A stretch of 62,908 bases of DNA, filler included, from Jimgerdemannia flammicorona (lineage: Eukaryota), in the NCBI GenBank assembly GCA_003990765.1. It is 3 parts of 3 records of this genome, joined end to end, with 100 filler letters (N's around TTAATTAATTAA, not from the genome) between each part and the next. Parts side by side here need not be neighbours in the genome. Positions count along the whole stretch, not along the records: positions 42,029 to 62,908 come from RBNJ01001574.1; 2 more parts are not named here. One strand, given 5' to 3'. The position numbers and the translations under genes are program-made. Below the pieces are notes generated by a model, which did not search any database, was not told the DNA's origin, and saw nothing but the letters and a program-made list of their open reading frames with translations. Below are positions 33,851 through 62,908 of the stretch, piece after piece (within the stretch, counting starts at the first letter, position 1; every line of letters starts with the position of its first letter).

Positions 33851-36800
33851 TCTACTATATCTTCTTTTTTACTTCTTTTAATTTGATATAGTCTCACCTT
33901 ATCTTGTCTCATTATATCACTTATTTAATACCATATTGCTTATTTTATCTATCTAATTAATTAGTAGAGTAATTAATTCAGATTAAATAAATAAATTAAT
34001 TAATTTACTTATATTAATTATTTTATCTTATATATTTTATCTTATCTGCTGATAGGTCTATAAATAAATAAATAGTGATACTTAATTCTTCTATATATTA
34101 TATTCTATCCTATTCTATCTTACTTAATAATTATCAAAAGAGAGAATATTTGAGATAGAAAAGTACTTTCAGCTAATAATGTTAAATTCTTTCTCATATA
34201 AATAGTATATAAGCAGTTTATCAAAAGTAGTAATAATGGTAATAATGGTGATAATAGTAACAATAGTGATAATAGTGATGATAGTGATAATGGTGATGAG
34301 AGAGAGTTCTGATAAAAAATTATACAGATTCTATAGATTTCAGAATTCATCAACCTCACAGCTATATATATAGCAGCCTAGTCTATAGTAGATATAAGTT
34401 ATAATTATACAATACATTTTTATCACAGAACAACTAATTTCACTTTAAGCTAAATTTTTTTTTTTTTTTTTTTCTTCTATCCTTAAGGTTCACAACTCTA
34501 TAGTGAGATCTGCTAACTTTATTTATAATATCTGATTAAGATAAAGAAAGACTGAAGAAAAATTCAAGATATACTTTTGGTAATTGAGCTTTTGAGTTAG
34601 TGTATTATATAGTAGAGGTCTCAAAAGAAACAGAAGTATAAGTATTCTTATATAACTCAACTATACTCAATTCTCATACTTATACTAAATACTCACTCTT
34701 TTTTTAAAACTTTTTATCCAAAATTGCATATAACTTATAACTTAAACCATAATCTATTCTCAGATCAAGGCTCAGTTCTACTATAGGAAGGAATTAAAAA
34801 TAATCTAAGTTTAACTATATTTAGCTTCTAATAAATTAAAGAAGTTTAAGAGTAAGTTATTTAGTATAAGTAATACTAGCTTGACTATTAAGGCTTGAGA
34901 TTCAATATTTAAATCAAAATCAATCATTCTCAACTATGAAATCTACTGGCTAGCAGAAGTTTTCAATAATGAAGAGAACTATATTATTATTAATTAATGT
35001 AGAGAGGTAGTTATGATAGTAGTAAGAAGTCTCTATAGTGAAAAACCTTACTACTATATTAATGAAATTTGTGAGGATTGTATCAAATATCAGATAATAG
35101 AGAAAAGAGGATATAATAAGTAAGAAGGGGGAGTTGGAATAGAAATTAGGTATATAGTAATATTAGTAAAGAGTGGATTTCTCAATTTTTTCTAAATTCC
35201 TCACACTTGATGATATTTTGGAGAATTTAATCAATCTTATTAAAAATATCCAGAGATATATAGAATACTATATCTCTACTGAAATTTCAGAAGTAAAGTC
35301 AAAGAGTAAGTTGTATGTAAGCATAATATGGCCTATATAATAATAATGACTATGATCTGGAGATCTTTGAGCAGATTGCTAGAGTGAATAGCAGACTAGT
35401 ATAGTAGTGCTCTTGATATAGCCATATGTATATTTTTGGTACAATTCAGTATATTATATAATATAAGTATTTAATTATTTATGTGACTAAAAGAGGGTTA
35501 CTTATGGAGCAGAAGAATTGACCAGATACTGATTTATTTTGGTAGATATTTAAGCCAGGGCTCCTAGGACTTGATGAAAAGTAAGTCTCCTCCAGTACTA
35601 TCTGGCAGTCCAAGGTTCTAGTCTAAGAGTTCATACAACTATATACTAATATTATATTGAGGTATATTGGATATAATATTTCTCTACTCATATATATAGA
35701 CAACGATATCACTCTGGTAATATTCCATATATATTTCAGAAAGAAAGTACCCCACTTGAGAGAACAGTAGAGATATCTGATATAATCTTACTTATAGCTT
35801 TGGGGTTCTATTTACAGCTAATATAGTAGTCTTATTTCAGCTACATAATCTCTATAGTACTATTGTCCTTAAAGAGAGCTCAGATATAACTATTATTATA
35901 TTTATAATATATAAATAATAGACTTATTATGGTCTGGAACTAGTAAGTATAGTAGTTTTGTAGATATTGAGGATTCTAGTACTAAAAACATAATCTCTCA
36001 TAATTGTGAGATAGAAATAACTATTGTTATATAGACTGGGCAGTTCAATATTATATCTATAGATATAATTATTATATAGTATATATGTAATCCTTGTTTA
36101 AGGAATATAATTCAGTAAGAAAGAACTTAGTAGATGGATTGAATGTATATTCTTTTTATTTACATTTAGTAAATAAGTATATAGATTATATATTATAAGA
36201 GAAACTTTTTTAAATATATATTTTATTATAAACACATAGTTGAACTAAATAGCCAAGTATATAGACTGAAAATACAATTATATAAACTTAATATTACTTA
36301 CAATTATGATCAGTTTTCATTTAAGGAGTGTGTAGTAGTATTAGAAGTATATATATATTCAATAGTGAATTATATATAATATAAGAGTCTATAGATTATT
36401 ATTGAAATTAAATCTTTATTGATATAAGTTGAGATTTATATAGTTTTGTATATAGTATTTGTAGTATTCATTGTTTATAGTATTCATAGTATAGTTCATA
36501 GATTCATTACAGATATATTTTATATAGTAAATATATCTGATCTTTTCATATTCAAGTTAAATTTCATTTACTTACTCCTTATAGATAACAGATCTGGTTT
36601 AGTATTAAATGAGAAGTTTGGTCATAAATCTGACATGTTTCTTTAACTGTGTTGTTTCACTTTTGGTCTTCTTCTCTTTCAGTAAGATAAGGTAGTACTT
36701 TTTTGACCAGATGGATTATTACTATTTCTTATCCTTTCTTGGTCTTATTATACTGAATTTGTTTATTATGTTATAATTTTTTACTGAATAGATGTTTTCC

Positions 36801-38390
36801 ACAATATTATCCTTAGAGGTAGTATTGATATCACATTTATATAATTTAGAGTATATTTTGATTGAGTTCATTAACTCTGAGTTTTGTCCAGGAACTATAT
36901 CTTGAGCTTATCTAAGGATAGCATCAATTTATTGAAATGTTTTATTGACTTTATTAGTCTGTTTGGCTTTCTTTATAAGTCACTATCACTTTTGGTACTC
37001 AGCATTTTATTTGGCACTAATAGTGGTTTTTTATTTTATTAAGATTTATTCTCTATTATCAGAGGACTCTTCATTACTGGCTAGAGATAGTAATGACATT
37101 ATTCACATTTTGCTTATACAAAACAATCCTTCATTGGCTGTAATTTGTATTTCTTTCTATCTTATCTATATAGTAATAAATATCTGAATTTTATCAATAG
37201 TATTAAGAATATTATTTAAAAAATCAGAATGGTTGAGTTATAGATATATCTTGATAATAAATACTATTTGTTTATTATTTTTCTTATTCAGGTAGCCATG
37301 CTTGCTAGTCCTGAACTAAGTCTCAAATTTTTATATATTTTATAAACTAAATTGCTAAGAATATAGATAGAAAAGTATAATATATAAACTATAATTTTAT
37401 AATGTAAATTTGAATAACTGCAGATATATATAAACTAGTAGATGTTAACAGATTTGATTTTTTGAAAATACAGCTATATAAACTATTGTGATGTTCGGTT
37501 TGTATCCCTAGTTGCTTCTGGCATAGCTCAATGTGTCACTTGGTGAAGTATGCGATGGATATGAGTGTGTTTGCGACAGTTGCGGGTCATTGGTCACATG
37601 ATTGGGTCATTCGATTTGTGCAGTAATTGATAGAGTTCGATTGTTTGTTGGCTCAGAACATCGATGATGAGGTCGTTTGATTGTTCAACAATGGTGGCTC
37701 AATTGTTTAGTAGATAAGGGTGGCAATTATGCTGGCTAAGTTTCCTGGCAGTGATTAACTTGGCAGCAAACTCAAATTTATGCAGCAACGACAGGCTTGC
37801 TCTTTATGCGATCAATTAAAGTGGTCCGTAGTGCAGTAGGTCGGGAAAACGGAGGTTGATGGCTCACTCGTCCATCTTGACTTATTAACTTGAAAGGTTC
37901 CTGGCAGTCGTTCAGATCTTTGGCAGCGGGTCAGTCTTTTGGCGGTCTAGTATCCTTTGGCTGGGTATCCTTGGGTTTCTGGGTCTTGAATCTCGAATGG
38001 CAGTCTGAAATGCGCAGCGGTCATAGTCTTGAATCCTTGGCTGGGTCTCGAATGGTGGTGGTCAGGTAACGTTTTCTTTCCATGGCAAGAAAAAATTCTT
38101 TAACTCAAACTTCTGAGCGATCTGTTGCTCTAGGTTGTTATCTTGTTCTCAGAATTTATCCAGTCTCTTGGAGGCAGTGGTTTCTTTGTAATCCTTTTTA
38201 CTTTTAAACACAAGCTGACTGAGGCTTTATTCACTCTAAGAATATGGGTTATTTATACAAGTTTGCTAGCTATGGGGGAGGGGGAGCATGACTAAGGCTA
38301 AGGTATACTACGTTGTGGTGAACTTATACTATTGGTTTGTATGATGCAAGGTGCAGGCTATTGTTTACTACGGATTGGGTTGTAGGGGAT

Positions 38391-42422: not shown

Positions 42423-42947
42423 TCACAACCCAGACGCCTCATGCTCACTGACAGCGCATCCCCACGAGTCGCGTTCCGTGCACTCACAACAGCTCCACCT
42501 CATGGCAGGCTTGAACCCCGTTATTGTGATGGACTGCTCAGTAACAACAACATTCCACCCGAACTCTCCGGGATGGTAAATGCATCGTTCAGCGGCAGCG
42601 GGATCGAATTCGAGCCTACACCTTGCGCAAAAGGGCGGCTTTGTGAAGGGAACACCGTAGAAATCGGCCTCGCACATGACCTCACGCCGGAGGGCCGCGT
42701 CAACGGGGAGAACAACGTCACCGCCGCGACGGAGATTGTCGAGGATGTAACGGAAGGGCGCTGGATCACGGTCAATGAAGATGCCGCCGTCCACGGTCAG
42801 CGGTGTGTAGGACGGGTCGAGGAGGCCATGGAAGAAAGTATCAGGGATAGAGAGGAGGGTCGTGCGTGTGGTGGTGAAGCGGAGACCGCCCACGTTCAGG
42901 TGGACGACGTCGTTACTGAGGATAGCGTTGGGCTGTTTCGTGGTCAT
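42423..42947 (-). CDS. KCTD-type BTB/POZ (T1) domain protein with C-terminal Cys/His zinc motif
   Basis: VHLNVGGLRFTTTRTTL..IFIDRDPAPFRYILDNLR..EADFYG, then CARC..CIYHPG..WSCC..GC..H; single intact ORF. Confidence 0.9.
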   Translation of the reverse strand: MTTKQPNAILSNDVVHLNVGGLRFTTTRTTLLSIPDTFFHGLLDPSYTPLTVDGGIFIDRDPAPFRYILDNLRRGGDVVLPVDAALRREVMCEADFYGVPFTKPPFCARCRLEFDPAAAERCIYHPGEFGWNVVVTEQSITITGFKPAMRWSCCECTERDSWGCAVSEHEASGL

Positions 42948-43187
42948 TGGGAGGTGCGGGCGGTTTGAAGGACAGGGTGGTTGGCAGTGTTCGTTTGCGG
43001 GTCACTGATGTAGTGTATGCCCCACGTGGTCTCATTTCTCATTTGCCCATTTGCGTCATCATCTGTCATCCGCTGATATATATAGACCCCCGGAATGGAA
43101 TTCGAGGAGGGGGCAACTGACAACCACCGTAAGCATATTTAATTCCATCCCCCATTTTCTGCTTGCCACCATCCATTCAAACAAAAC

Positions 43188-46255: not shown

Positions 46256-47373
46256 ATGCTGCCGACTCCCCCACGCATCCTAACCTGCGCGCGGATCCAC
46301 CGTCAAAATGCCTCCACACACCCCATCGACCTGACGCTCCTAGCGCGTCTCCTGCACGCCTCCCCAACCTACAGCGCCGGCCTGGCCATCGCGACGGACG
46401 GCGACGATCCGGATCTCGTGCGGGCGGTTGAAGCGCTCATACGGGTGGAACCCGCGCGCAAGGGGTTTGAGGTACTCATCATACCTGTCAGCCCGTATGG
46501 ACGCTTTGTGACGCCTCTTAATGCCATGATCGCGAGGGCGGCGAAGGACGGGTACGAGCGCGTGCTGTTCCAATCGTTGGAGGTCGTTGTCGGGAGAGCG
46601 GAGATTGAGGCCTTGGCGGGGATGATGGATGAGGGTGAGTAGTAGGTTAACTATGTGATTGTTTTGAATATAGTTGCCATTTTAGGAGGTTCTGATAATT
46701 GAATGGGACAGATTCGCTGGTGGTCGGCAAGGCCTTCGATTCGCACGCGTTCGTGTTGGGAATGAATAAGCTCACCGGGCTGACGACGCCGTGGAACACG
46801 TGCGCGTTGTGGGATGTGAAGAAGATTGCCCTGGTATGTGGTTATTATATTAAGAACTTGTCATATGATATCATTTCGCTGAAATTTAACAATTACTAAC
46901 CGGTAAACCTGGTAGACGGGCTTCCTCCTCGTTGCCGACGGCCTTGATCCGGAAGTCGTACCTGCCACGGAGGTCTGTCCGATATCTCCAAAACGATGTC
47001 CTTATTCCCCTCTTTGTGCTAATAAGTGAATTATTGAACCCACGCCCACCCTCCAGGAAGCTTCCGCCATCGCCTTGCACCAGCTCTTGCGCCCCACAAC
47101 TTCCAAAGCTGTTCTCGTGCGTACATCGCGGCTCGGCGAGGGGGACGGGTGGGAGGCCCATTGGTATGTCTCCTTTCCTTGATATTTCTCTCTCCCTCTT
47201 TACGACCGCGACCAACTTGGTACAACATAACACCATGCCTCAGGTCCGATCCGGAACGCCGCGCATGGCACGCTCGTAAGATGGCCACTAAAATCTCGAG
47301 CGTTGAGAGCCAGCTGCCGAGGTTGGGAATTTCTGACCATGGAATGGTCGCACACGTTGATCGGTCGTCGTGA
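46256..47373 (+). CDS. Five-exon conserved hypothetical protein (TTPWNT..GF..WH..KM motifs; possibly glycosyltransferase-like fold)
   Basis: Exons 46256-46634, 46712-46833, 46916-46972, 47057-47163, 47244-47373; GT-AG introns splice in frame. Confidence 0.8.
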
Positions 47374-48319
47374 GGTAGAGCAGAGAAGAAAGGTGGGGCC
47401 GCGGGCACGTGGTTGTGGAAGCCAGTAGAGTGATGTGGGGCCGTGGTTGGCCCCGAAGAGAATTTGATACATACTCACCTATCTTGTAATTTCATTCTGG
47501 CCAGACTTATTGATCGTTTTTATCCGTATACCTTACATTACAATTCTAATTATATCTCTGTACCATCTCTGTAAAGGGTTTCCAGTGTTTATATAATAGG
47601 CGTGCAATCACCTTTATCATCCCAATAGTGTATTACCATTAGCATATTCACAACGATTTATACTGTTTGTCTTTTCCTCAAATTGTTTTATGCATGTCGC
47701 ATCATGTCGAGTTGCGTGGTACATGTGCTGGGGCCTGGCTCATACACACCGAACGCCGACGGCCGTGTTTGGGCTTAATGGTGATTTTAGTTTTGGAAGC
47801 GTTGGATGTGTCTATAGGTTAGTGTGGGGGTGAGATCTCGGAGGAATCGTTAGTTTAACATGGAAACACTCGCATGGCAGGCGGGGCCTAGATGGAGTAT
47901 TCTCTGGTCATTAAACATTAGTTTATCGTGGCCTTGGTTCTTTCTAATGGTCTTCCCTTAGAAAGGTGTCTATTGCTTCGCTTTGCTCGTTTTGGCTTTT
48001 TTGTTGCAACATTGGGAGTATGACTGCATGTTAGTGCTACTTCGCGGAAATTATACCTATTTACTCGTTGATTATGTTATCTCTCCGATGTGAGATTTCA
48101 TTCCGCTACTATTTGGTACGCAATTTCCCCTGACTTCGACATACTTCCCCGACCAGAAAATGATTAGTAATGGTTAACGCTCTTCTCGAGTATGAAACAG
48201 AACCGGGCGCAAAGGGTTAATCATGAGCCATATCCGTTGCTGTGCATGATGGCCCAGCCCCACCGCAGTTTATTACCCAGTATGGATATGGCGGCGGGTA
48301 AAGTTTGATGTTTCACTTC

Positions 48320-48495
48320 TGCAGCTTCTCGATTGTCAATAGTACTCTCTTGATGCCAAATAGAATGGCTAATCATTTTTTCTCGATGTCAACTAATTTT
48401 TTTCTCGATGTCAAATAGTACGGGCTAATGATTTTCTCGATGCCAATAGTATGGGCTAATGATTTTCTCGATATCAAATAGTACGGGCTAACTAT
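48320..48495. repeat. ~31-33-bp tandem repeat (TTCTCGATGTCAAATAGTACGGGCTAATGATT), about five degenerate units upstream of array gene copy 1
   Basis: Directly visible. Confidence 0.75.
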
Positions 48496-48791
48496 TTTAT
48501 TTGTTCCGTGCGCATGAAACGAGAGTGCCTGCGATATTGTTTCTCAAGTTTAATTGGTCCACGAAGCGCACCCCCCCGATGAAGCGTCAGGGACCAGCCG
48601 ATTCGAGCAAAAAAACAAGGTCTGAAAATGTAAAAATAAGTCAATTTACTTGTTTTTAACAATCATGCGATCTTGGCCTTCGTTTGGTTTAGTTCTATTA
48701 TGTAAGGTTGGTTCCTCCTGTCGAGCTTTTGATAGTCACGCGAAATGTTCGACTATTTAACCGCTGCAGGCAGAACAATGGAGGGCAAATA

Positions 48792-49676
48792 ATGGCTTAC
48801 CGGCGAATCCTACCTATGCCTCAACAAGACTTGTTATTCCCACACAACTTCCTCAATATCAATTCCAGCTATTCCAAAATATCTCTCTATTCCTATCCCT
48901 CCTACCTCCGCTGCCCCTTTCCCACATGCCCAACGACCTTCAGTAATATAGAAATTCTTCAAGCACACCTGATGCTAGAATCTCACATCATAGCAACAGC
49001 CAATGCCGTTTGGGTCAATACAATTATACCTCTCCCGTCGCCTGGTGAATTTTGTGAGAGAATAAACAACCAGATGTATATGCCTCAAGCGCAACCCCTC
49101 CCCGGCGTACCATCGAACGACACCGCAATCGATCACACAACATTGAGTCAACTTTTCTCGCAACCCCTCGGTGCAAACGGCGCAGTGCAACAATTTGAAG
49201 CAGCAATTTATACAGCCAAACCGGAGCCATATAAACAGTGTACCAGCTGCTCAACAAGGAAGAGGCGATGCCCCATACACGCCGCTGCCACCACCAACAA
49301 ACCGAAACGAACCGCGCCGGGGAAAGCGTGTGCTCGGTGCAGGATGGACAGAAAATCATGCCGTGACACACCTTGCACTCGTTGCAGCAAATCCTGCAGG
49401 ATTTGTTTAGGAGACGATAATTTTCATAGCCTCATTGCATCGTCGTTCGACGGATTGGCGTCCACAAACGAAGGCGACGTTAACTTGGCGCTCAAAACCA
49501 TCAAGGAGATCTTCGAGATCGGCGACAGATCTGGTCATCGCTACGGTCGTGAGGGCGGTGACCGCTACGCGGAATGTATCTACTCATGCGGGGGTATACA
49601 GAAACTTCGCGATCTCGAGCAACGCATGGGACATAACGGCGTTGGAAGGAACATATCCTGGCCGTCATTAAATTGA
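48792..49676 (+). CDS. Zinc-finger/Zn2Cys6-like/importin-alpha-ARM-like protein, copy 1 (1-nt deletion near 49637 alters the C-terminus)
   Basis: CPFPTC..HLMLESH, CTSC..RRCPIH and CARC..C..CTRC..C motifs. CATAACGGCG here versus CATAACTGGCG in copy 4. Confidence 0.75.
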   Translation: MAYRRILPMPQQDLLFPHNFLNINSSYSKISLYSYPSYLRCPFPTCPTTFSNIEILQAHLMLESHIIATANAVWVNTIIPLPSPGEFCERINNQMYMPQAQPLPGVPSNDTAIDHTTLSQLFSQPLGANGAVQQFEAAIYTAKPEPYKQCTSCSTRKRRCPIHAAATTNKPKRTAPGKACARCRMDRKSCRDTPCTRCSKSCRICLGDDNFHSLIASSFDGLASTNEGDVNLALKTIKEIFEIGDRSGHRYGREGGDRYAECIYSCGGIQKLRDLEQRMGHNGVGRNISWPSLN

Positions 49677-50195
49677 TTCACGGTGACGCTGACAACATAT
49701 ATGCCGATCTTTTTGCGGGCGAGGATTCCGTTACCGACGATTACTCTTCCTTCCAGCAAGATGTCACCGAGGAGTGGGGTTTGCTATATTCCACGTGATT
49801 TCGAATCCGTTCTATTTTAATTCATTAGCCATCACACTCCCTAGTATATATATAATTATATATCGTGACAACACTGTATTTCATATAAATACTATAATAC
49901 CCTAGCACTTTGTCTGAATAAACAAGTCGAATACTTAGTACAAACTTTGAAAGCCTGTGCGCGTTTCGAGGGGACGAGGATCCGAAAAATAGAGGGCGCA
50001 TAGTGATCCGCAGTTCTATCTCGCCGTGATTCTTATTGATTTATTCTCCTCCAAGAACCGTTAACTTTTACCCCCACAATAAATATTCAGGTGTACAATA
50101 ACTGCTCGTTGAAGCCCGCTGTTAGGCAATGCAACATATACTGATACGTTTAGTGTCGTGAGTTAAGTTCTACTCAACGTCTTCTATTGTATATA

Positions 50196-50233
<38 letters not shown>

Positions 50234-50256
50234 TACCAAAAAAAAAAAAAAATACA

Positions 50257-51085
50257 CGCTAACAAGAGAATTATTGAATCCACTCCCACCCTCCAGCCAC
50301 CGACTTTCACCAGCTCTTGCGCCCCACAACCTCCAAAGCCGTTTTCGTGCGTACATCGCGGTCCGGCGAGGAGGACAGGTGGGAGACCCACTGGTAAGCA
50401 TCCTTCCCTTGTTATTTTCTCTCTCCCCTGACCGCGACCAACTTGGTACATTCCCCCATAACAACATCACCAAACCACGCCCCAGGCCAAACCCGGAACG
50501 CCGCGTATGATATGCTCACAAGATGGCCACATAAAATCGAGCGTTGAGAGCCAGCTGCTGAAGTTGGGGTTCTCTGGGCATGGAATGGTCGCACACGTTG
50601 ATCGGTCGTCGTGAGGTAGAGCGGAGAAGAAAGTGGGGCCGCGGACGCGTGGTTGTGAAACCAGCAGTGTGATGTGTGGACGTGGTAGGCTCGGGGGAGA
50701 ACTTGATACATACCCACCTGTCTTGTAGTTTCATTTTAGATTGAGTTACTATCGTTTTACCATTACAAATTCTAATTAGATCTTTGCATCACTCTGGGTT
50801 GTTTTTGTAAAGAGTTTCCGGCGTTTACATAATAGGCGTGCAATAACTCCTATAATCCCAACAATGCATTTTCGTTAGCACATTCACAATGATGCCATGC
50901 CATTTGTCTTTTCGTCAGTTTGTTTTAATCAGGCCACATCATGTTGAGTTGCGTCAGGCGTTTTGGTACATGTGTTGACCTGGCTCATAAATACCAAACT
51001 CTGACGGCTTATGGCGACTTTATTTTTGGAAGCGGACGTGTCTGTAGGTTAGTGTTAGGGTAAGATCTCGGAGGAGGAATCATTG
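50257..51085 (+). pseudogene. Duplicated 3' fragment (intron 3 to downstream flank) of the 46256-47373 gene, unit 2
   Basis: Colinear with ~47015-47850, with indels. Confidence 0.85.
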
Positions 51086-51539
51086 CCCTTGCGATCATAC
51101 ATGTTCAATTCACCCAAACACTTGCATATCGGTCGAGACATAGATGTGATATTCTCTGGTCGCTAATAATTAGCCGGTAGCCATCCCGCGATGTTAGTTT
51201 ATTTTGGTTTTTTGTTATCTTGGTTGTTTCTAGTAATCTTCTCTTCACCAAGCGTAGTTCGTGCAAAAATGAAAAAAAATAATTGGCTAGGAATTCCATC
51301 ACATGACCTATTGGAAAACCCAGATAGGTCATTCGCCTGCAGGACGGTCTGGCCTGGGAGTTGAAGGTTTGTTCGGGGTTTGAGTTTAAGGTTTTGGGGT
51401 TTTGTGTGCTTAGTTTTCTTCAAGATCGTGAAGTGAATGTTGATCCTTTTGGGCGTTGGGAATCGGGAAGGATAGATCGTATCGAGGATCTTTCGAGAGC
51501 TGATGATGTCAAGTTGAATATACATATAGTTCGTGTTTA

Positions 51540-51577
<38 letters not shown>

Positions 51578-52450
51578 CGGATGACAAGCCAAAGTAACCA
51601 TTGTCGGTCGAAGTGGAAGGGTACAGAGCCATGCCACAGTTGGTATCGGTACACATTTCCCATTATTATGGTATATTTTTTTCTGTTTTGCAACGGCTGG
51701 CGGTAGATCGGTACCATCGCTGGGGGGCGTTGCAGTGCATATATTCATTTTCCAATCGAAGGATGCAGGTAACGAAAAAATTAAGGTTGTGGGTAGGTGT
51801 GCACATGGAGCAGGTCACCGTTTTGCTCCGAGTGGGTGGGGTGGGGAATAGTTTATTTTGGGTGTGTTGTGTGATATTGTGGGGGGAAGGGTAGGGAAGG
51901 ATGTCCATGGAGAGAGTATATGCATGTGGATAGTGTACTGCAAAGGCCGGAGGATCGGACATTATCGTCACACGGGCATAGATTAGATAAGCTGTAGTGG
52001 AGGGGGGGGGGTAACAGTCGACATGACGGTTGCGACACTTGTGGGCCCGCGGCTCAAATGTTGATTTGTGTAACATGTTTGGATTACGGATCGGGGTTGG
52101 ATCGCCCCTCACACCGAAGTCCGCCACATCAAAATCTGCCACATACACTAAAGTCCGTCACATGCTATTGTGCTTTTTTCCCTCTCTAATAAGGTTTCCT
52201 CAAAGAGTACGGGGCGTCGTTCAAGCTATTTGTTCGGGCGCATGAAACCTACGCGCAGCTTGAATGGGGGTCCTGCGATATTGGTATTTTCAAAATGGTG
52301 GTATACGAGAGAAATAATTGATCGTCAGTGCTGTATCCGATTGCAAACCGCAGCTAAAATCACAACCCTGTCAATGGATTGCCATATATGGTATATGAGG
52401 CTATGCAGATCATATGTATAATAGGATCCACCCGATTTTTTCCTCCACCT

Positions 52451-52733
52451 GATTTTTTTGCCATCCGATTTTTTGTGATCAGGGTTTTATCGCCAACTAA
52501 TTTTCACGTATATGCTTTCGTCAAACGCCTAAACAAATGAATTACGCAGCCTTTTATACTGAATGTGGGATTCATTTATGTACTACACACATAGGCAACA
52601 GGCACAGCCATCTGTCTGGCAGTTAGTTGAAAAAAGGAATAGTCCAAGTGACAGACGATTTAAGTAGACGCGTTTGTTTACAAAGAACGCACGATAAAAA
52701 CCAGATCTCAAAAAATCGGACGGCAAAAAAATC
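52451..52733. mobile_element. Small inverted-repeat element (MITE-like remnant)
   Basis: ~42-bp imperfect IRs at 52451-52492 and 52692-52733; no TSD found. Confidence 0.55.
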
Positions 52734-53071
52734 AAAATCTAGTGGTGCTATCCGAGCGATGCGAATACCAATAATGAAGCGCTGTAACGCTAACTGTTTG
52801 GGGCGTTTTTAGTCATGTGGCATTAAGGAGGCGTTGAATAGCCCAATCCTCGTACAATAAACCAAGAATGCCTCATTGTTGGGCCCGTTTCATTAAGCTG
52901 ACTGGCCAGTGGACTATGGCCAGTGCACTCTTATAAATGCCCATAAATAAATTAAAGTATTTGTATAACGAAGCCAAGTACAGTACAACCGATGCAGGCA
53001 GAGCATAGAAGAGCAACGAAGGGTACTCTAACAACACTAGTCTATTGAAATAACCACTACATCCACAAAAA

Positions 53072-54019
53072 ATGGCTTACCGACGAATCCTACCTATGCC
53101 CCAACGAGACTTGTTATTTCCGCATAACTTCCTCAATAGCAATTCCAGCTACTCCAAAATATCTCTTTATTCCTGCCCCTCTTACCTCCGCTGTCCCTTT
53201 CCCACGTGCCCGACCTTCAGTAATATAGAAAATCTTCAAGCACACCTGATGCTAGAATCTCACGTTATAGCAACAACCCATGCCGTTTGGGTCGATTCAA
53301 TTATACCTCTCCCGTCGCCTGATGAATTTGGTGAGAGAATAAACAACCAGATATATATGCCTCAAGCGTACGTCAACTTGCAACCCTTCCCCGGCGTACC
53401 ATCGAACGACACCGCAGTCGATCACACAACATTGAGTCAACTTTTCTCGCAACCCCTCGACGCAAACGGCGCAGTGCAACAAATTGAAGCAGCAATTTTT
53501 ACGGCCAAACCGGTGCCATATAAACAGTGTACCAGCTGCTCAATAAGAAAGAGGCGATGTCCCGTACACGCCGCTGCCACCACCAACAAACCGAAACGAA
53601 CCGCGCCGGGGAAAGCGTGTGCTCGGTGCAGGATGGACAAAAAATCATGCCGTGACACACCTTGTACTCGTTGCAGTAAATCCCGTAGGATTTGTTTAGG
53701 GGACGATAATTTTCGCAGCCTCATTGCATCGTCGTTCGACGGATTGGTGTCCACAAACGAAGGCGACGTTAGCTTGGCGCTCAACACCATCAAGGAGATC
53801 TTCGAGATCGGCGACCGATCCGGTCATCGCTACGGTCGTGAGGGCGGCGACCGCTATGTGGAATGTATCTACTCGTGCGGGGGTATGCAGAAACTTCGCG
53901 ATCTCGAGAAACGCATGGGACATAGCTGGCGTTGGAAGGAACAGATCCTGGCCGTCGTTAAATTGATTCACGGTGACGCTGACAACATATATGCCGATAT
54001 TTTTGCGGGCGAGGAGTGA
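53072..54019 (+). CDS. Zinc-finger/Zn2Cys6-like/importin-alpha-ARM-like protein, copy 2 (open ORF, 315 aa)
   Basis: Uninterrupted ORF; TATAAAT at ~52932. Confidence 0.85.
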   Translation: MAYRRILPMPQRDLLFPHNFLNSNSSYSKISLYSCPSYLRCPFPTCPTFSNIENLQAHLMLESHVIATTHAVWVDSIIPLPSPDEFGERINNQIYMPQAYVNLQPFPGVPSNDTAVDHTTLSQLFSQPLDANGAVQQIEAAIFTAKPVPYKQCTSCSIRKRRCPVHAAATTNKPKRTAPGKACARCRMDKKSCRDTPCTRCSKSRRICLGDDNFRSLIASSFDGLVSTNEGDVSLALNTIKEIFEIGDRSGHRYGREGGDRYVECIYSCGGMQKLRDLEKRMGHSWRWKEQILAVVKLIHGDADNIYADIFAGEE

Positions 54020-54462
54020 GTTTTGCAATATTCCACGTGATTTCGAACCCGTTCTATTTTTATTCATTCCATCACAATCCCTAGTATATATCGCGACATC
54101 ACTGTATTTCATATAAATACCTTAGCAATTTGTCTGAATAAACGACAAGTCGAATACTTAGTACAAACACTGCACGTTTCGAGAAGACGAGGATCCGAGG
54201 GCGCAAGGTAATCAGCAGTTCTAGCTCGACGCGATTCTTGATTTATTCTCCTCCAAGAACCCTTAACCACTTTATCCTGTGACACGAGCCAAAACGGATT
54301 CCACAATAAATATTCGAGCGTCCAACGACTGTTCTTTGGGGCTCGTTGTTAGGAAATGCATCACATACTGATACCGGTTCGTGTCGTGAGTTAAGGTCTA
54401 CGCAGCGTCTTCTGTTTTGTTTTGTTTTTTGTTTTTTGTTTTGAATTTGTGTTAAAAAATAC

Positions 54463-55240
54463 ACGCTAACGAGCAAATGATTGAACCCTCCAGCTACCAC
54501 CTTGCACCAGCTCTTGCGCTCCACAATCTCCAAAGCCGTTCTCGTGCGTACATCGCGGTTCGGGAATGAGTCCCTTATTATTTCTCCGGGGGGGGGGGGG
54601 GAAGGCGCGCCACACAATCTGCCGCAGCGGTCCTTATTTGAACCACAGTGTCAATCTATCCCCATCCCACGACAAACTTGGTACAACCTGCACATAACAC
54701 CATAACCAAACCGCGCCCCAGGTTCGACCTGGGCACGATGGCCACCAAAATCGTGAGTATTGAGAGCCAGCCGCTGAGGTTGGGGCTCTCTAAGAATGGA
54801 ATGGTCGCACATATTAATCGGTCGTCGTGAGGTAGAGCAGAGAAGACAGAAATATGAGAGGCAGCAGTGTGATGTATGGGCGCGGTAGGCCCGTTGATAC
54901 ATACCCATCTGTCTTGCACATTATTTTGGCTAGACTTATCTATCGTTTTTATCCGCATTGCCTTACATTACAAATTCTAATTAGATCTATATCACCTCTG
55001 TAAACGATTTCCAGTGTTTATATAAAGGTGTGCAATTACCTTTATTATCTCAACAGCGCATATTCACAACCATGTTATACCGTTTGCCCTTTCGTCAATT
55101 TGTTTTATTCACGTCGCATCATGTTGAGTTTGTCGAGTGCGTTGGTACATGTGTTGGCCTGGCTCATATATACTGAACTCCGACGTATTGGGTTTAAGGA
55201 GATTTTAATTTTGGAAGGGTCAGACGTGTCTATAGGTTAG
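54463..55240 (+). pseudogene. Duplicated 3' fragment of the 46256-47373 gene, unit 3
   Basis: LHQLLRSTISKAVLVRTSR..MATKIVSIESQ..GMVAHINRSS remnants. Confidence 0.8.
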
Positions 55241-55492
55241 TGTGCTCGCATGTAACCGCTTAATAGTGTGACTCTTCTGTCCTACGTCCGTACAGCGGTA
55301 GAGGCCACGTTGTGGCTTGTGCGACGGCGGATGAAACGGAGACAACAGCGGTAGTTTTCATAGGTCATAGCTACTTTATCCATTCCGATTCAAGTTGTAT
55401 AAATATCCATGAATAAATTGACAAGGAAACCAAGTACGGTACAACCGCTGCAGGCATTAGTCTTATTGAAATAACCACTGCATTCATAAATA

Positions 55493-56480
55493 ATGGCTTA
55501 CCGGCGAATCCTACCTATGCCTCAACATGACTTGTTATTCCCGCACAATACCAATTCCAGTTGTTCCAAAATATCTCTTTATTCCTACCACTCTTACCTC
55601 CGCTGCCCCTTTCCCACGTGCCCAACGACCTTCGGTAATATAGAAAATCTTCAAGCTCGCCTGATGCTAGAATCCCACGCCATGGCAATAAGTAATACCG
55701 TTTGGATCGATGGAATTACACCTCTTCCATCATCTGGTGAATTTGGTGAGAGAATGGACAGCCAGATATGTATGGCCCAAACGCACGTCAATTTGCAATC
55801 CCTCACCAGCGTACCCTCGAACGACACCGCAATCCATCACACAATACTGAGTCAGCTTTTCTCGCCGAAAACGGTGCAGTGCGATAGCTTAAAGCAGCAA
55901 TTTTTACGGCCAAACCGGAGCCATATAAACAGTGTACCAGCTGCTCAACAAGAAAGAGGCGATGCCTCGTACACGCCGCCACCGTCACCAACAAACCGAA
56001 ACGAATCGCGCCGGGGAAAGCGTGCGCTCGGTGCAGGATGGACAGGAAATCATGCGGTGGCACACCTTGCAATCGTTGCAACAAATCTCGTAGTATTTGT
56101 TTAGGAGACGATAGTTTTCGTAGTCTCATTGTATCTTCGTTCAACCAATTGGCGTCCACAAACGAAGGCGACGTTAAATTGGCGCTCGACACCATCAAGG
56201 AGATCTTCGACGTCGGCGACCGATCCAGTCATCGCTACGGTCGCGATGGCAGTGACCGCTACGCGGAATGTATCTACACGTGCGGGGGCATACAGAAACT
56301 TCGCAATTTCGAGCAACGCACAGGACATAGCTAGCATTGTAAGGAACAGATCCTAGCCATCATTAAATTAATTCACAATGACGTTGACGACATATATGCC
56401 AATCTTTTTGCGGGCGAGGATTCTGTTACCGACGATTACTCTTTCTTCCAGCAAGATGTCACTGAGGAGCAGGTTTTGCA
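55493..56480 (+). pseudogene. Array gene copy 3, frameshifted, with a premature stop
   Basis: Frameshift near 55865; TAG at 56332-56334; C2H2 His changed to Arg. Confidence 0.85.
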
Positions 56481-56857
56481 ATATTCCAACCCGTGAGGCG
56501 GACGGTCTAGAACATATCTATTTTCATAATATAGCACTTTGTCTGAATAAACAAGTCGAATACCAAGTACAAACACTGAGGCTTAGGATCCGAGAAATGG
56601 AGGGCGCAAAGCGATACGTAGTTCCCTCTCGACGCGATTCTTATTGATTTGTTCTTCTCTAAGAGCCCTTAACTACTTTTACCCTGTGGCACTTGAGCCA
56701 AAACTGATCGTCACAATAAATATTCCGGCGTGCAATGACTGTTCGTTGAAGCTCGTTGTTAGCCAATACATAACACACTGACTGATACAAGTTCGTGTCG
56801 TTACTTAGCGTCCTCTGTTATATATATATATTGTTTTGAATTTGTGTCAAAAAGTAT

Positions 56858-57668
56858 ACGCTAACAAGTGAATGATTGAATCCCCTTCCACCTTCCAGCC
56901 ATCGCCTTGCAACAGCACTTGCGCCCCACAACCTCCCAAGCTGTTCTCGTGCGTACATTGTTGTCCGGCGAGGGGAACGGGTGGGAGACCCATTGGTACG
57001 CTCCTTCCCTTGTTATTTCTCTCTCCCCCTTTACGGACGCGACCAACTTGGTACAATTCCTATATAACGTCATCGTCAAACCGCGCCCCAGACGCGACCC
57101 GAAACGCTGCGCATGGAACGCTCACTAAAATCTCAAGCGTTGAGAGCCAGCTGCCGAAGTTGGGCTCTCTGGGCATGGAATAATCATACATGTTGATCGG
57201 TCGTCGTGAGGTAGAGCGGAGAAGAAAGTGGGACCGCGGACGCGTGATCGTGAAAGCCAACAGTGAGACAGATGGCCGTGGTAGACCCGGGGAAGTATTT
57301 GATACATAACCTGTCTTGTAGTTACATTTTGGACAGACTTATCGATCGTTTTATCCATTACAAATTCTAATTAGATATTTGTATTACTCTTGGACCGTCT
57401 TTGTAAAGGGGTTCCAGTGTTTGCACAATAGGCATGCAATCACCTTCATCACCCTAGTAGTGTATTGTCATTAGCTTATTCACAACGATGTTATACCATT
57501 TGTCTTTTCGTCAATTTGTTTTATTCATGTCGCATCATGTCGAGTTGTGTCAGGCGTGTTGGTACATGTGTTGGGGCTCTGGTGAGCGTATTGGGCTTAT
57601 GGCGATTTTATTTTTGGAAGCGTCAGACGTGTCTATACGGGGGTGAGATCTCGGAGGAGGAATCATTG
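56858..57668 (+). pseudogene. Duplicated 3' fragment of the 46256-47373 gene, unit 4
   Basis: QHLRPTTSQAVLVRT..GWETHW..KISSVESQLPKLG remnants. Confidence 0.8.
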
Positions 57669-57811
57669 CATGTGAAAAAAAAAAAAAAAAAAAAAGAGGA
57701 ATTCACGCGTCAATTATCACATGACCGCTTATCGCCCATGCCACACCGAAGTACCAAAGCACGTGTTCCTTCCTTTGTTGTAGTTCCAACACATGGCAGA
57801 GGTTTCGCTAT

Positions 57812-58182
57812 TAGTGCTCCCAACGAATCAAAGGTCCAATTCAATTTGATTCAAATCTAATCCGATTTGAGGTCTGATTCGAACCATATTTTTTGAAATG
57901 TAATAACTTGACGAATACACATCCAAATTCAATAATCTTTAGCTTGTTAGATTCCTCTTATATAGGGGAATCTAACAAGCTAAAGATCATTGAATTTGGA
58001 CATATATTTGTCGAGTTGTTACATTTCGAAAAATAGGGTTCAAATCAGACCCTCAATTCGATTTAAATTCGATTCGATTCGATTCGAACTTGATTCGAAT
58101 TAAAAAATCCCCAATTCGATTTGATTTGAATGACCCACAATTCGATCCGATTCGAATTGATTCGATTCGTTTGGGAGCACTA
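57812..58182. mobile_element. hAT-type fold-back MITE (371 bp)
   Basis: TIR TAGTGCTCCCAA(A)CGAATC; 8-bp TSD TTCGCTAT (57804-57811, 58183-58190); long internal palindrome centred near 57960; ATTCG subterminal repeats. Confidence 0.9.
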
Positions 58183-58810
58183 TTCGCTATTGTGCCTATA
58201 AACCGAGGTCGGCCTTGTGCTTTGTGTCATGGGTCTACGCGCATCTTCAATGGGGGTCTGCGATATTTACATATATCTGCATTTCCAACAGGGCCTATTA
58301 TCCTGTCCCTCTGATGCATGAAGCAACGATAAGTATGCAAGTACGACAGAAATAACTAATCGTCAGTGCTGTAGTTCGTTCGCAGGTGTAATGGGAAAGC
58401 AGGCGGTCCGATTAAATTGCGAAAGCTATACTGCATGAGAACGAATCGCAGTTCCGTCACCGCAAGCCCACGATTGATTATATCGATTATCGTATATGAG
58501 ATGCACGATCACATGATCGTGGGTATTCTGCTGAATAGTCTATAATAGGGATAAGTGGCATTGGTCATCTCCCCGAAAGGCAGGGTTGTGTGAGGGTATG
58601 TAGTGCAACGAATCGAATTTCGTGCGGAACAGTTGTGACGCAAGCGGAAACGGACCCGACAAAATAATATCTTATCCATATCCGATCCAAGTTGTATAAA
58701 TACTTGTATAAGGAAGCCAATTACAGTACAACCGCTGCAGGCCTAGAAGAGCAACGAAGGGTATTCTAACAGCATTCGTCTTACTAAAATAACCACTGCA
58801 TCCATAAATA

Positions 58811-59815
58811 ATGGCTTACCAGGGAATCCTACCTATGCCTCGACAAGACTTGCTATTCCCGCACAACTTCCTCAATATCAATTCCAGCTGTTCCAAAACA
58901 TCTCTTTATTCCTACCCCTCTTACCTCCGCTGCCCCTTTCCGGCGTGCCCAACGACCTTCAGTAATATAGAAAATCTTCAAGAACACCTGATGCTAGAAT
59001 CTCACGTCATAGCAACCCATGCCGTTTGGGTCGATACAATTATACCTCTCCCGTCGCCTGGTGAATTTGGTGAGAGAATAAACAATCAGATATATATGCC
59101 TCAAGCGCACGTCAACTTGCAACCCTTCCCCGGTGTACCATCGAACGACACCGCAATCGATCACACAACATTGAGTCAACTTTTCTCGCAACCCCTCGAC
59201 GCAAACGGCGCAGTGCAACAAATTGAAGCAACAATTTTTACGGCCAAACCGGAGCCGTATGAACAGTGTACCAGCTGCTCAACAAGAAAGAGGCGATGTC
59301 CCGTACACGCCGCTGCCACCACCAACAAACCGAAACGAATCGCACCGGGGAAAGCGTGTGCTCGGTGCAGGATGGACAAAAAATCATGCCGTGACACACC
59401 TTGCACTCGTTGTAGCAAATCCTACAGGATTTGTTTAGGAGACGATAATTTTCGCAGCCTCATTGTATCGTCGTTCGACGGGTTGGCGTCCACAAACGAA
59501 GGCGATGTTAACTTGGCGCTCAACAACATCAAGGAGATTTTCGAGATCGGCGACAGATCCGGTCATCGCTACGGTCGCGAAGGCTGTGACCGTTACGTGG
59601 AATGTATCTACTCGTGCGGGGGTATGCGGAAACTTCGCGATCTCGAGAAACGCATGGGACATAACTGGCGTTGGAAGGAACAGATCCTGGCCGTCATTAA
59701 ATTGATTCTCGGTGACGCTGACAACATGTATGCCGATATTTTTGCGGGCGAGGACCCCGTTACCGACGGTTACTCTTCCTTCCAACAAGATGCCACCGAG
59801 GAGCGGGTTTTGTAA
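58811..59815 (+). CDS. Zinc-finger/Zn2Cys6-like/importin-alpha-ARM-like protein, copy 4 (open ORF, 334 aa, longest version)
   Basis: Uninterrupted ORF; TATAAAT at ~58695. Confidence 0.85.
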   Translation: MAYQGILPMPRQDLLFPHNFLNINSSCSKTSLYSYPSYLRCPFPACPTTFSNIENLQEHLMLESHVIATHAVWVDTIIPLPSPGEFGERINNQIYMPQAHVNLQPFPGVPSNDTAIDHTTLSQLFSQPLDANGAVQQIEATIFTAKPEPYEQCTSCSTRKRRCPVHAAATTNKPKRIAPGKACARCRMDKKSCRDTPCTRCSKSYRICLGDDNFRSLIVSSFDGLASTNEGDVNLALNNIKEIFEIGDRSGHRYGREGCDRYVECIYSCGGMRKLRDLEKRMGHNWRWKEQILAVIKLILGDADNMYADIFAGEDPVTDGYSSFQQDATEERVL

Positions 59816-60237
59816 TATTTCGAACCTGAGGAGGACGATCTAGAACACATCTATTTTTATTCATTCCGCAGTATACCCAGCAGTATATATCGTGACATCA
59901 CTGTAATTCATATAAATACCCTAGAACTTTGTCTGAATAAACGACAAGTCGAATACTAAGTACAAACACTGAAATCCTGTTCACGTTTCGAGAGGACGAC
60001 GATCCAAAAGTACAGGGCACAAAGTGATCAGAAGGTCTATATCCTCCAAGAACCTTTAACTACTTCTACTTGAACCAAAACTGATCGCCACAATAAATAT
60101 TCGAGCGTGGACTGTTCGTTAAAGCTTGTTAGCCAATACATCATATACTGATACCGGTTCGCGTCGTAAGTTAGTTCTGCTCAGCGTAATCTGTTGTACC
60201 CTTTTTTTTTTTGAATTTGAATTTGTGCCAAAAAATA

Positions 60238-61090
60238 CACGCTAAAAAAAGCAAACGATTGAACCAACTCCCATCCTCCAGTCATCGCCTTGTACCAACT
60301 ATTGCGCCCTACAACATCCAAAGCCGTTTTCGTGCGTACATCGCGGTTCGGGGATGGGAGGTTCATTGGTACGCCTCTGTTCCTTATTTCTCTGGGGGGG
60401 GGGGTAGGCGTCAAACCGCGGCTGCGAAAAGCAATGCAATGCCCAATTGTCAAGGTAAGAAAAAATAAGAAAATCCCTCCGCCACGTTTTGGCATGCAGG
60501 TCTGACCTGGGCACAATGACCACTAAAATCACGAGCCAGTTGCTGAGGTTGGGCTCTCTGAGCACGGAAATGTCGCACACGTTGAACGGTCGTCGTAAGG
60601 CAGAGCAGAGAAGAAAGGTGGGGCCGCGGACGCGCGGTTGTGGAAGCAGCAGTGTGATGTGTGGGCAGGGTAGGCCCGGGGGAGAATCTCCTGTCTTGCA
60701 ATTTTATTTTTGCCACACTTATCGATCATCTTTGTCCGCATTGCCTTACATTACAGATCTCTACACCACTCTGAGGCAATATCTGTAAAGGGTTCCCATT
60801 GTTTACATAATAGGCGTGCAATAACCTTCTCGTCTTAACAGTACATTGATATTAGCATATTCACAATGATAAATACCGTCTGTCATTTCGTTAATTTGTT
60901 TTATTTACGTCGCATCATGTTGAGCTGCGTCGCGCTTTGGTACACGTGTTGACCTGGCTCATATGTACCGAACTCCGACGGTCGTGTTGAGCTTTTGGCG
61001 ATTTTAGTTTTAGTAGCAGACGTGTCTGTAGGCTAGTGTAAGGGTGAGATCTCGGAGGAGGAATCATTGCCCTCGCGATCATACATGTTT
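60238..61090 (+). pseudogene. Duplicated 3' fragment of the 46256-47373 gene, unit 5
   Basis: YQLLRPTTSKAVFVRTSR remnant; shared GAGATCTCGGAGGAGGAATC end motif. Confidence 0.8.
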
Positions 61091-62351
61091 AATTCACGGA
61101 GGCACTGGCATGTCAGTCGGGACCAGCTGGTAGCCATCTCGTGATATTAGTTTATTGTTGTCTTGGTTGTTTCTAGTTATTTTACCAAAGAAAGTATGGC
61201 TCAAGCGTCAATTATGTAAACTCCATCACATGGCCGCTTAATAGTTCCCCATAGTCCCTGTTGGCGGCGCAGACAATGTGCCATGAAACCAAAAGCAGTG
61301 AATGTCCGTGATTGTGCGTGAGTTGACGGCATGTCTCGGAAAGGGTTAGCAGCAAGCACACACGTAGAAAGGTGTTATGATTGGTGTTCGCCACATGCTC
61401 GTGCGCTTTATTTATCTCAGGTTTAGTAAGATTTTTCGCGATGTCAAGGAGTACGAGCATTGTTCCGTGCGCATGAAACGAGTCATGTAACGGAAAGCTG
61501 AGCCAAGGCGACAACAAATAAGGACCATGACTCAATGTCAACCTGCGCTCGCATGGTTCATCCCTCAAATGGTTAGTTATTTCGCCACGGCTAGCAATTG
61601 AGCACGATCGTTAGAGCATAGATCTGCTGCATTATCCCATGATTTTAATCGAGTTGTTGAGGTTACATATGCGGTGCGTGTGCTTCTAAACAATGCTATA
61701 CTACTTTCGTGCTCTTCTCCCTTCCATCCCCTCCAGGGAGTTCCTGCGTGCTAAACTCTGTCATAGATCAACGCGGGGGCCTATATATCTGCATTTACAA
61801 CATTGCATATTATTTTGCCTCTCTGATTACAATAATTTGCATGCAGGAATGGCATGCATGCAGTATTAAAAAAAAAACAAAATAAATAAATAACTAATCG
61901 TCAATGTTGTAGTTCGTTTGCAAGTGTGAATTACGGAGGGTAATGCCGACCCCGCAATGATCATCGCGATCATGAGATTGTGACCCGGTGAAACCCTCGT
62001 ACAAAGGCGCGAATCGTATGGGTTCTACAAAAAGCCCAATAAATTATTTCACAAAAAGCCGGCCAGAACATAATTAATACCAATCTATCAACCTTTCAGT
62101 TACTATCCTTTATTAAGACTTGCAGGCAAATTTTCCTGCAAATTATTTATACAGATTTTGAGTTTTTAGTATCAAAACGTTTAACTATGGATGAACAGGA
62201 TCGTCATAAGGGATAGTCTGGAGAGCTGATTTGCCGGTGCAAGCTTATCCAAGTTGTATAAATACCCCCAACCGCTTCAGGCAGATAGAAGAGCACTCTA
62301 ACAACTCTAACAGCGCTAGTATTATTGAAATAACCACTACATTCACAAATA

Positions 62352-62884
62352 ATGGCTTATTAGCAAATCCTACCTATGTCTCAACAACATACTTGTTATT
62401 CCCGCACAACTTCCTCAATATCAGTTCCAGCTGTTCCAAAACATCTCTTTATTCCTATTCCTCTTACCTCCGCTGCACCTTTCCTACGTACCCAACGACC
62501 TTCAGTAATATAGAAAATCTTCAAGCTCACCTGATGCTAGAATCTCACATCATAGCAACAACCCATGCCGTTTGGGTCGATACAATTATTCCTCTTCCAT
62601 CATCTGGTGAATTTGATGAGAGAATAGACAACAAATATGTATCCCCAAGCGCACGTCAACTTGCAATCCCTCCCCGGCGTACCCTCGAACGACACACCAA
62701 TCGATCATACAACATTGAGTCAACTTTTCTCGTCACCCCTCGACGCAAACGGCGCCGTGCAACAATTTGAAGCAGCAATTTTTACCGCAAAACCGGAGCG
62801 GTATAAACAGTGTACTAGCTGCTCAACAAGAAAGAGGCGATGTCCCGTACACGCCGCCACCATCACCAACAAACCGAAACGTAG
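62352..62884 (+). pseudogene. Array gene copy 5, stop at codon 4, frameshifts, truncated at a terminal T-run
   Basis: ATGGCTTATTAG; colinear with copy 4 up to TNKPKR. Confidence 0.85.
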
Positions 62885-62908
62885 CTTTTTTTTTTTTTTT
62901 TTTTTTTT

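Follow-up and report, generated by a model that had tools for sequence, protein, structure and literature searches.

The stretch of DNA analysed here, referred to below as the window, comes from Jimgerdemannia flammicorona (assembly GCA_003990765.1) and comprises 62,908 nucleotides (nt) in three parts joined end to end. Self-BLAST of the window showed five tandem, diverged copies of a unit of about 2.3 kb at 48.7-62.9 kb, in the last 16 kb of the window; four of the five fall within 48792-59815, the range described by the first-pass annotation of this DNA. The units carry a gene, or the remains of one, whose predicted protein would combine, from the N-terminus, a C2H2-like finger, a very basic stretch with a half-motif and a short-looped Zn2Cys6-like cluster, and finally a tail resembling the armadillo (ARM) repeats at the end of importin-alpha.

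Three-frame reading and local alignments showed that two of the copies (c2 and c4) are intact, one (c1) has a 1-nt frameshift, and two (c3 and c5) are dead. All five are encoded on the plus strand. The reference copy, c4, is an intact open reading frame (ORF) of 334 amino acids (P0001; 58811..59815), and c2 is an intact ORF of 315 amino acids (P0002; 53072..54019) with a shortened tail and a C2H2-like spacing of x11. In c1 the frame from the ATG to the deletion (48792..49637) is complete across the zinc modules and through the beginning of the ARM-like domain. Comparison with c2 and c4 shows that a TGG codon following ...RMGHN has lost its T, which shifts the frame ahead of the last helix. The out-of-frame continuation (WKEHILAVIKLIHGDADNIYADLFAGED...; 49643..49795, plus strand) encodes the last helix and the acidic end, and conservation persists there at the peptide level. 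The pseudogene c3 (55493..56493) contains a frameshift near codon 130, in-frame stops, including a TGG to TAG change, and an Arg in place of the first His of the finger. Copy c5 (62352..62882) is a pseudogene fragment with a stop at codon 4, frameshifts, and a Tyr in place of the second Cys of the finger, and it is cut off by the end of the window, where it runs into poly-T. The family has thus followed a birth-and-death course, with two intact members, one freshly frameshifted member and two dead ones.

Whole units of the array were 72-88% identical to one another in the self-comparison. A partial unit ahead of c1 (47018..47965, plus strand) consists of the downstream non-coding part only and is 72-76% identical to segments downstream of c1, c3 and c4. 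Self-comparison found no further copies of the unit beyond the array in the 62.9 kb window. About 400 nt past the stop codon of each unit there is a run of T followed by a run of A (50187-50262 and 60205-60250, for example), with the T-run reaching at least 40 T in c1 and being far shorter in c4. The part of the unit beyond these runs is about 80% conserved and has no consistent reading frame, and the spacers from unit to unit vary in length.

The finger of c4 lies at residues 41-65 (58931..59005, plus strand) and reads C41-x4-C46-x12-H59-x5-H65. It is followed at residues 153-166 (59267..59308, plus strand) by a C-x2-C-x6-C-x2-H module with RKRR inside it (C153, C156, C163 and H166), which looks like half a Zn-cluster motif, and at residues 183-208 (59357..59434, plus strand) by the Zn2Cys6-like cluster, C183-x2-C186-x6-C193-x4-C198-x2-C201-x6-C208. 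The 60 residues from 151 to 210 include 16 K+R and 9 Cys. The first-pass annotation had attributed all of these motifs to each copy. All are present in c4 as written there, and much of the claim extends to the other copies, with the C-x2-C-x6-C-x2-H module kept in all five and the six cluster cysteines kept in all four copies that reach the cluster region. However, the finger spacing of x12 is limited to c1 and c4, and three of the five copies are broken.

Canonical C2H2 fingers follow the spacing C-x(2-4)-C-x12-H-x(3-5)-H, and canonical Zn2Cys6 clusters the spacing C-x2-C-x6-C-x(5-12)-C-x2-C-x(6-8)-C, so the middle loop of the cluster in the array, x4, is one residue short of the PF00172 rule. 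A Pfam scan of the full protein at E≤10 returned Zap1_zf1, Zn_clus, zf-C2H2 and zf-C2H2_4 only. The matches of the finger were weak (Zap1_zf1, E 0.013, with 15.6 bits where the cut-off is 27.2; zf-C2H2, E 0.32, with 12 bits where it is 25.2), and its match to 2dlk_A in the PDB had an E-value of 0.0083 as a single sequence and 0.071 as a profile. The putative C2H2 finger is therefore recognized by its spacing together with weak profile matches. Zn_clus was found in four of the five scanned segments, where its best score, 18.5 bits (E 0.0018-0.0023), stayed below the cut-off of 21, and it scored 14.7 bits on the full protein. The profile of the zinc region matched the DNA-binding domain of Schizosaccharomyces pombe Pho7 in the PDB (E 0.0047). 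These weak, sub-threshold matches suggest a Zn2Cys6-like cluster.

The tail begins directly past the last cluster cysteine and is about 100 residues long. In c4, homology to the end of importin-alpha extends over residues 224-321 (59480..59773, plus strand), which correspond to part of the last canonical Arm repeat, Arm_3 and the acidic tail. The C-terminal string that had been quoted for this protein was present in c4, as was the acidic end (residues 301-334, with 9 D+E versus 1 K+R). When the tail profile was searched against the PDB, the only sequence returned at E≤10 was the importin-alpha of Neurospora crassa (4rxh_B, E 0.00097), and the match was colinear, C-terminus on C-terminus. In phmmer searches of the PDB, 4rxh_B ranked first with the c3 tail as query (E 0.0065) and also with the c2 tail (E 0.079), and came second with full-length c4 (E 0.1); the matched stretch always ran from about residue 376 to about 439 or 459.

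Because these PDB E-values are thin on their own, a directed test was made with fetched importin-alpha C-termini. These were collected from metagenomes using a degenerate DNA pattern for ECGGMEKI, a motif seen in the alignment of the tail profile with 4rxh_B. The pattern identified 81 loci, of which 66 read as importin-alpha C-terminal exons; the other 15 were chance bearers of the motif and were used as controls. All three of the importin loci tested contained Arm_3 (E 1.6e-20 to 4e-25) and Arm. The tail profile scored 9.8-28.2 bits on the 66 importin segments, without exception, and no more than 5.2 bits on the 15 controls. When only the 95 residues upstream were scored, a comparison free of selection bias because the motif had been cut away, the median was 6.4 bits and the maximum 10.9 bits, with colinear alignments, while the maximum among 1280 shuffles was 4.4 bits. 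Comparison by hhalign of the tails of the copies (A1) with 19 non-redundant importin segments (A6) gave a probability of 92.4% and a P-value of 5e-7 over 84 columns with 29% identity, in an alignment that covers residues 224-321 of c4. As a separate observation on the metagenome sequences, the frame of the last importin-alpha exon breaks after ...IIET/IIDRY in loci L006, L013, L065 and similar ones, implying an intron; in the lineages that most resemble Neurospora, the last exon is long and unbroken.

The motif reads G-G-[MI]-[RQ]-K-L in the copies and G-G-[LM]-[DE]-K-I in importin-alpha. Comparison of c4 with the 25 invariant importin positions that it covers shows nine identities, five conservative hydrophobic changes and eleven replacements: D>N twice, N>E, K>E, N>D, E>S, Q>E, K>D, Y>L, Y>I, and Arg or Gln for the Glu of GGMEKI. 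The replaced positions are all polar, charged or aromatic; in other words, the hydrophobic core of the module has been kept and its polar surface rewritten. All four copies that reach the end of the tail have an F-x-G-E-D/E stretch, and the tail is net acidic in each. Within residues 287-321 of c4 (59669-59773), two adjacent segments, KEQILAVIKLILG and DADNMYADIFAGED, are both candidates for alignment with the last importin-alpha helix. The pair may reflect either a small duplication within the tail or an insertion of 13 residues. The first-pass annotation had placed the last helix at KEQILAVIKLILG. The predicted structure makes the same choice, but HMMER and hhalign choose DADNMYADIFAGED, and the predicted structure is the only backing for the KEQILAVIKLILG alignment, because the part of the tail past the GGM motif did not score above shuffles.

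Structure prediction also pointed to importin-alpha. The full-length AlphaFold2 (AF2) model was poor (mean predicted local distance difference test score, pLDDT, 39.8), with residues 211-300 confidently helical; the ARM-like helical part is limited to about residues 207-300, and the rest consists of the zinc modules and low-confidence sequence. The tail modelled alone had a pLDDT of 66, a predicted template modelling score (pTM) of 0.61, and five helices. Among the Foldseek matches listed from the PDB, 31 of 42 rows were importin-alpha chains, at 20-24% identity, and the best row listed was Kap60 in the Cse1:Imp-alpha:RanGTP complex (1wa5_B, E 0.041). In VIA-align, every importin-alpha row placed model residues 1-95 on the last ARMs (KPNA2 410-497, Kap60 418-510 and rice 402-494) with Z-scores of 9.5-10.5. 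The nearest language-model neighbours of the tail were Arm_3 fragment clusters (score 0.82), which were treated as a lead only. No importin-alpha-type match to the N-terminal 150 residues was found in the PDB. A homodimer prediction with two copies of residues 176-312 scored 0.03, and no conclusion was drawn from it. The earlier suggestion that the tail is akin to the last ARM repeats of importin-alpha was thus borne out by the PDB profile match, by hhalign and by the superposition of the AF2 model, and the tail very probably descends from the end of an importin-alpha of the fungal type.

The copies with intact or nearly intact frames showed the signature of coding sequence. The coding sequences (CDS) of c1, c2 and c4 are 91-96% identical to one another, compared with about 80% in the flanks. 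The ratio of non-synonymous to synonymous substitution rates (dN/dS), calculated by the Nei-Gojobori method over the whole CDS, was 0.29-0.33 for pairs among these three copies. It differed little among the N-terminal, zinc and tail regions, with values of 0.25-0.30 in the C-terminal part. Synonymous change per site exceeded non-synonymous change with Fisher p-values of 5e-6 to 6e-5 over the whole CDS, and of about 5e-3 in the tail alone. The intact and near-intact copies have therefore evolved as coding sequence under purifying selection, the ARM-like part included. Substitutions between copies comprised 295 transitions and 143 transversions. Repeat-induced point mutation (RIP) was considered as a source of this divergence and rejected because the CpA context was not dominant among the substitutions: 25 of 88 C to T changes preceded A, and 19 of 79 G to A changes followed T.

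Upstream of the c4 ATG, at a distance of 118 nt, is a TATA-like element, TGTATAAATA (58693..58702, plus strand), and no upstream ATG was found between this element and the c4 start. The same 10-mer lies on the plus strand 97 nt upstream of the ATG in both c3 (55396-55405) and c5 (62255-62264). It has five matches in the window, compared with 0.17 expected, and three of the five are at this position of the unit. Rfam and tRNA scans of the array returned no match. In a public run (X1, of a kind that was guessed, with a word share of 0.21), 15 short, low-depth contig pieces were found over 47000-62908. Some were exact matches to c1 (48819-49001 and 49109-49259) and c4 (58742-59069), and others fell on non-coding parts.

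An exhaustive phmmer search, covering 1.84 billion sequences that represent about 15 billion proteins, gave no relative of the whole protein at E≤1e-3. A word-indexed protein search among proteins of near length gave no match at E≤0.01 among 427 candidates, and the tail profile gave none at E≤10 among 7999 candidates that were longer proteins. Searches of metagenome contigs and viral contigs found no relatives, and no literature was found that joins Zn2Cys6, an armadillo repeat and importin in one fusion. The combination of a zinc cluster with an importin-alpha tail, which the first-pass annotation could not connect to any described protein, therefore appears to be new, in that no named or widespread family matched it in the protein sets searched.

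The array is surrounded by transposon-like sequence. On the minus strand, a LINE-like (long interspersed nuclear element) retroelement at 26900-31800 has an ORF carrying both an Exo_endo_phos endonuclease (E 3e-9) and RVT_1 (E 3e-20). The block that contains it is G+C-rich (53-55%) and has a strong negative GC skew. On the plus strand, a stretch at 10700-15700 resembling a long terminal repeat (LTR) retrotransposon has dUTPase (E 1.5e-27) upstream of RVT_1 (E 6e-17); it is probably degenerate, with interrupted frames. About 720 nt upstream of c4 there is a near-perfect hairpin (57831-58091) whose two 128-nt arms are 78% complementary and 5 nt apart, which looks like a foldback element or one of the type of miniature inverted-repeat transposable elements (MITEs) and lies outside the repeat unit. 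On the minus strand at 42426-43001, an ORF encodes a KCTD-type BTB_2 domain (E 3.7e-15). From residue 19 on, this sequence is present in the ESM Atlas, and its nearest language-model clusters, which are a lead only, were labelled Nucleocytoviricota (score 0.90). Elsewhere in the window, AT-rich blocks at 18000-24000 and 32000-38000 (26-34% G+C) are set between stretches of 45-55% G+C. At 23.7-24.5 kb there is a long simple repeat that codes for proline and leucine and is open in all three frames, and a run of N lies near 41.9 kb.

The array is best interpreted, with a rough probability of 0.6, as a lineage-restricted family of chimeric zinc-cluster genes that lack introns, are duplicated in tandem and have an importin-alpha-derived tail. 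Several results weigh against this interpretation. Three of the five copies are broken, and the family may therefore be on its way out. The X1 run provided no transcription evidence, and was taken as neither for nor against expression. Both Zn_clus and zf-C2H2 were below the Pfam gathering scores, and the zinc modules were absent from the poor full-length model. For the tail, the Pfam comparison with Arm and Arm_3 proposed in the first-pass annotation reported nothing at E≤10, and the tail alone matched no families; the AlphaFold and Foldseek comparison that was proposed with it did yield an ARM pair dominated by importin-alpha matches, but no Foldseek row from the PDB reached E≤0.001. The importin-alpha rows of VIA-align tied with the ARM domains of SARM1 and beta-catenin, and a Z-score of about 10 is within reach of unrelated helical repeats. 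Neither AF2 nor the language model adds independent evidence, as both draw on the sequence signal itself. An antisense-ORF control over the same DNA reached an E-value of 0.018 on an unrelated PDZ domain in the PDB, so single-sequence E-values of 0.01-0.1 carry little weight alone, and the set of importin segments was picked by a motif taken from the first match, so the hhalign P-value is that of a directed test and not of a database-wide one. The last helix and acidic stretch, taken alone, were not above shuffled controls. Finally, DNA binding, a nuclear location and a docking role are matters of inference only.

Some of these points would be expected if the tail were a generic helical repeat of the ARM or HEAT type with an independent origin, resembling importin-alpha by chance or convergence. 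Such an origin would account for the lack of Arm and Arm_3 in Pfam, for VIA Z-scores tied with those of many other solenoids, for an antisense control that came as far as E 0.018, and for an identity of merely 20-29%. It is nevertheless highly improbable, as the only database-wide profile match was to importin-alpha and ran colinearly from C-terminus to C-terminus, the hhalign P-value was 5e-7, all 66 importin segments were cleanly separated from all 15 motif-bearing controls, and the upstream signal, from which the motif had been removed, exceeded all 1280 shuffles. Foldseek, which uses 3Di as well as amino acids, also favoured importin-alpha over other ARM proteins in its 31 of 42 listed rows. 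A different explanation for the state of the array is that it is a decaying relic, a chimeric duplication that is not or never was expressed, in which two open frames have merely not yet been disabled. The three disabled copies, the altered finger spacing and shortened tail of c2, the absence of relatives from the protein sets searched, and the transposon-rich surroundings, with the LINE-like element and the dUTPase-bearing LTR element described above, are all compatible with this, and the constraint on the coding sequence could predate a recent loss of function. However, a dN/dS near 0.3 (p around 1e-5) that is seen across all three domains, a CDS that is clearly better conserved than its flanks, a conserved TATA-like element at a fixed distance from the ATG, and the retention of all metal ligands of the cluster in four of four copies make a relic unlikely.

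The 2.3 kb unit could also be an unrecognised mobile element, for example of the Helitron type, that captured an importin-alpha fragment and multiplied. There are five local copies and a partial unit in a transposon-rich neighbourhood, and among the short contigs of the public run were CDS variants, one with nine substitutions and a 6-nt gap and another with four substitutions and a 9-nt insertion, which may be further copies elsewhere or alleles. This explanation is very unlikely, given that the unit is not flanked by terminal inverted repeats or long terminal repeats (57.5-61.6 kb was examined for inverted repeats, and the sole one there was the hairpin outside the unit), that no copy occurs elsewhere in the window, that the unit contains no transposase, Rep or helicase ORF and the spacer ORFs have no Pfam match, and that the variation in spacer length fits segmental tandem duplication. 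A further proposal, which takes up the mechanism of the first-pass annotation, concerns the function of the tail rather than its origin, namely that the captured module still works as a docking site for Cse1/CAS-RanGTP, or for Nup2, so that the protein would be a self-shuttling factor or a decoy of nuclear transport. The binding of CAS to Imp-alpha2 has been mapped to residues 383-497, with an acidic stretch at 496-501 described as critical, and the M2 and M3 mutations abolished CAS binding and export (PMC2132842); the tail is homologous to this region. The N-terminus of Nup2 binds the C-terminal region of importin-alpha, where its site overlaps that of Cse1/RanGTP, according to PMC7891619. 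The top Foldseek row listed, Kap60 in its export complex, and the acidic tail with F-x-G-E-D/E in all four copies that reach it point in the same direction. However, the captured fragment starts at about KPNA2 410, and the Imp-alpha2 deletions 136/394 and 136/406 had already lost CAS binding (Table III of PMC2132842). The IBB (importin-beta-binding) domain, whose Arg44 makes the contact with Asp220 of Cse1 that PMC7891619 calls central to the export complex, is absent. Eleven of the 25 invariant positions covered are replaced, including the Glu of GGMEKI by Arg or Gln, and the post-GGM tail has no significant similarity by itself. Retained docking of this kind is therefore distinctly unlikely.

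Under the interpretation of the array as a lineage-restricted chimeric family, the end of an importin-alpha would have been copied long ago and fused behind the zinc modules, producing a new gene from old parts. The protein would be expected in the nucleus, given the 16 K+R in the 60 residues of the zinc region of c4, and it might bind DNA through the Zn2Cys6-like cluster. Zn2Cys6 factors usually carry a linker and a coiled-coil dimerisation element after the cluster. The captured two-ARM module would occupy this position and may serve as a protein-docking domain. As its core is kept and its surface rewritten, a new partner is expected, or at most a weakened contact of the Nup2 or Cse1 type; true importin-alpha-like export would not be expected of it. 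A more elaborate possibility is that the family is an agent of genetic conflict, a tandemly amplifying gene of rapid turnover whose tail would dock at the Cse1/Nup2 site of the pore basket and hamper the recycling of importin-alpha as a decoy, for example in spore killing, meiotic drive or the control of the surrounding retroelements, while the zinc region would provide nuclear entry or a DNA address. This is a long shot, and the least probable of the ideas considered here.

If the genes are expressed, they would represent a clean natural case of gene birth by domain shuffling, in which a fragment of a highly conserved housekeeping protein was grafted onto zinc modules, tandemly amplified, and partly lost again. 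The module is small and defined (two ARMs, about 100 residues), so that its partner can be sought, and it could be used to ask if the Cse1/Nup2 face of importin-alpha works outside of its parent protein. The understanding of nuclear transport would remain unchanged unless the decoy or shuttling reading holds.

Several known systems resemble parts of the array protein. The closest is importin-alpha itself (Srp1/Kap60, KPNA; PF00514 and PF16186), to which the last 100 or so residues of the tail are homologous with the same predicted fold; features that the tail has kept are the C-G-G-M-x-K motif, the F-x-x-E-D acidic stretch and the positions of the hydrophobic core. In contrast to importin-alpha, the array proteins have no IBB domain, lack ARM 1-8 and the grooves that bind nuclear localization signals, and retain only about 1.7 repeats, and their tail has a 13-residue insertion or a shifted last helix and is fused to zinc modules. 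The array protein is thus a derivative of an importin-alpha fragment and not a member of that family. With the Gal4-type Zn2Cys6 factors, of which the nearest solved example is Pho7 (6o19/6e33), the cluster shares the pattern of six cysteines and the flanking basic residues. However, the loop between its third and fourth cysteines is, at four residues, shorter by one than its Pho7 counterpart in the alignment, the cluster is located in the middle of the protein rather than at the N-terminus, and it is followed by an ARM pair, with no fungal-specific transcription factor middle-homology domain.

A precedent for the C-terminal piece of importin-alpha as a folded binding module is the C-terminus of KPNA5 with Ebola VP24 (4u2x), which was among the best structural matches of the tail model (Z 9.3-9.9, root-mean-square deviation 2.2, 21-22% identity). 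The KPNA5 fragment, at 170-175 residues, is about twice the length of the segment in the array and is a laboratory construct, whereas the array segment belongs to a natural fusion. Components of nuclear transport have also repeatedly spawned new genes, such as the retrocopies of importin and other transport genes in Drosophila, which are discussed in connection with meiotic drive (PMC8645118). Those genes are whole-gene duplicates in insects, whereas the array in J. flammicorona consists of a fragment of one such component fused to zinc modules.

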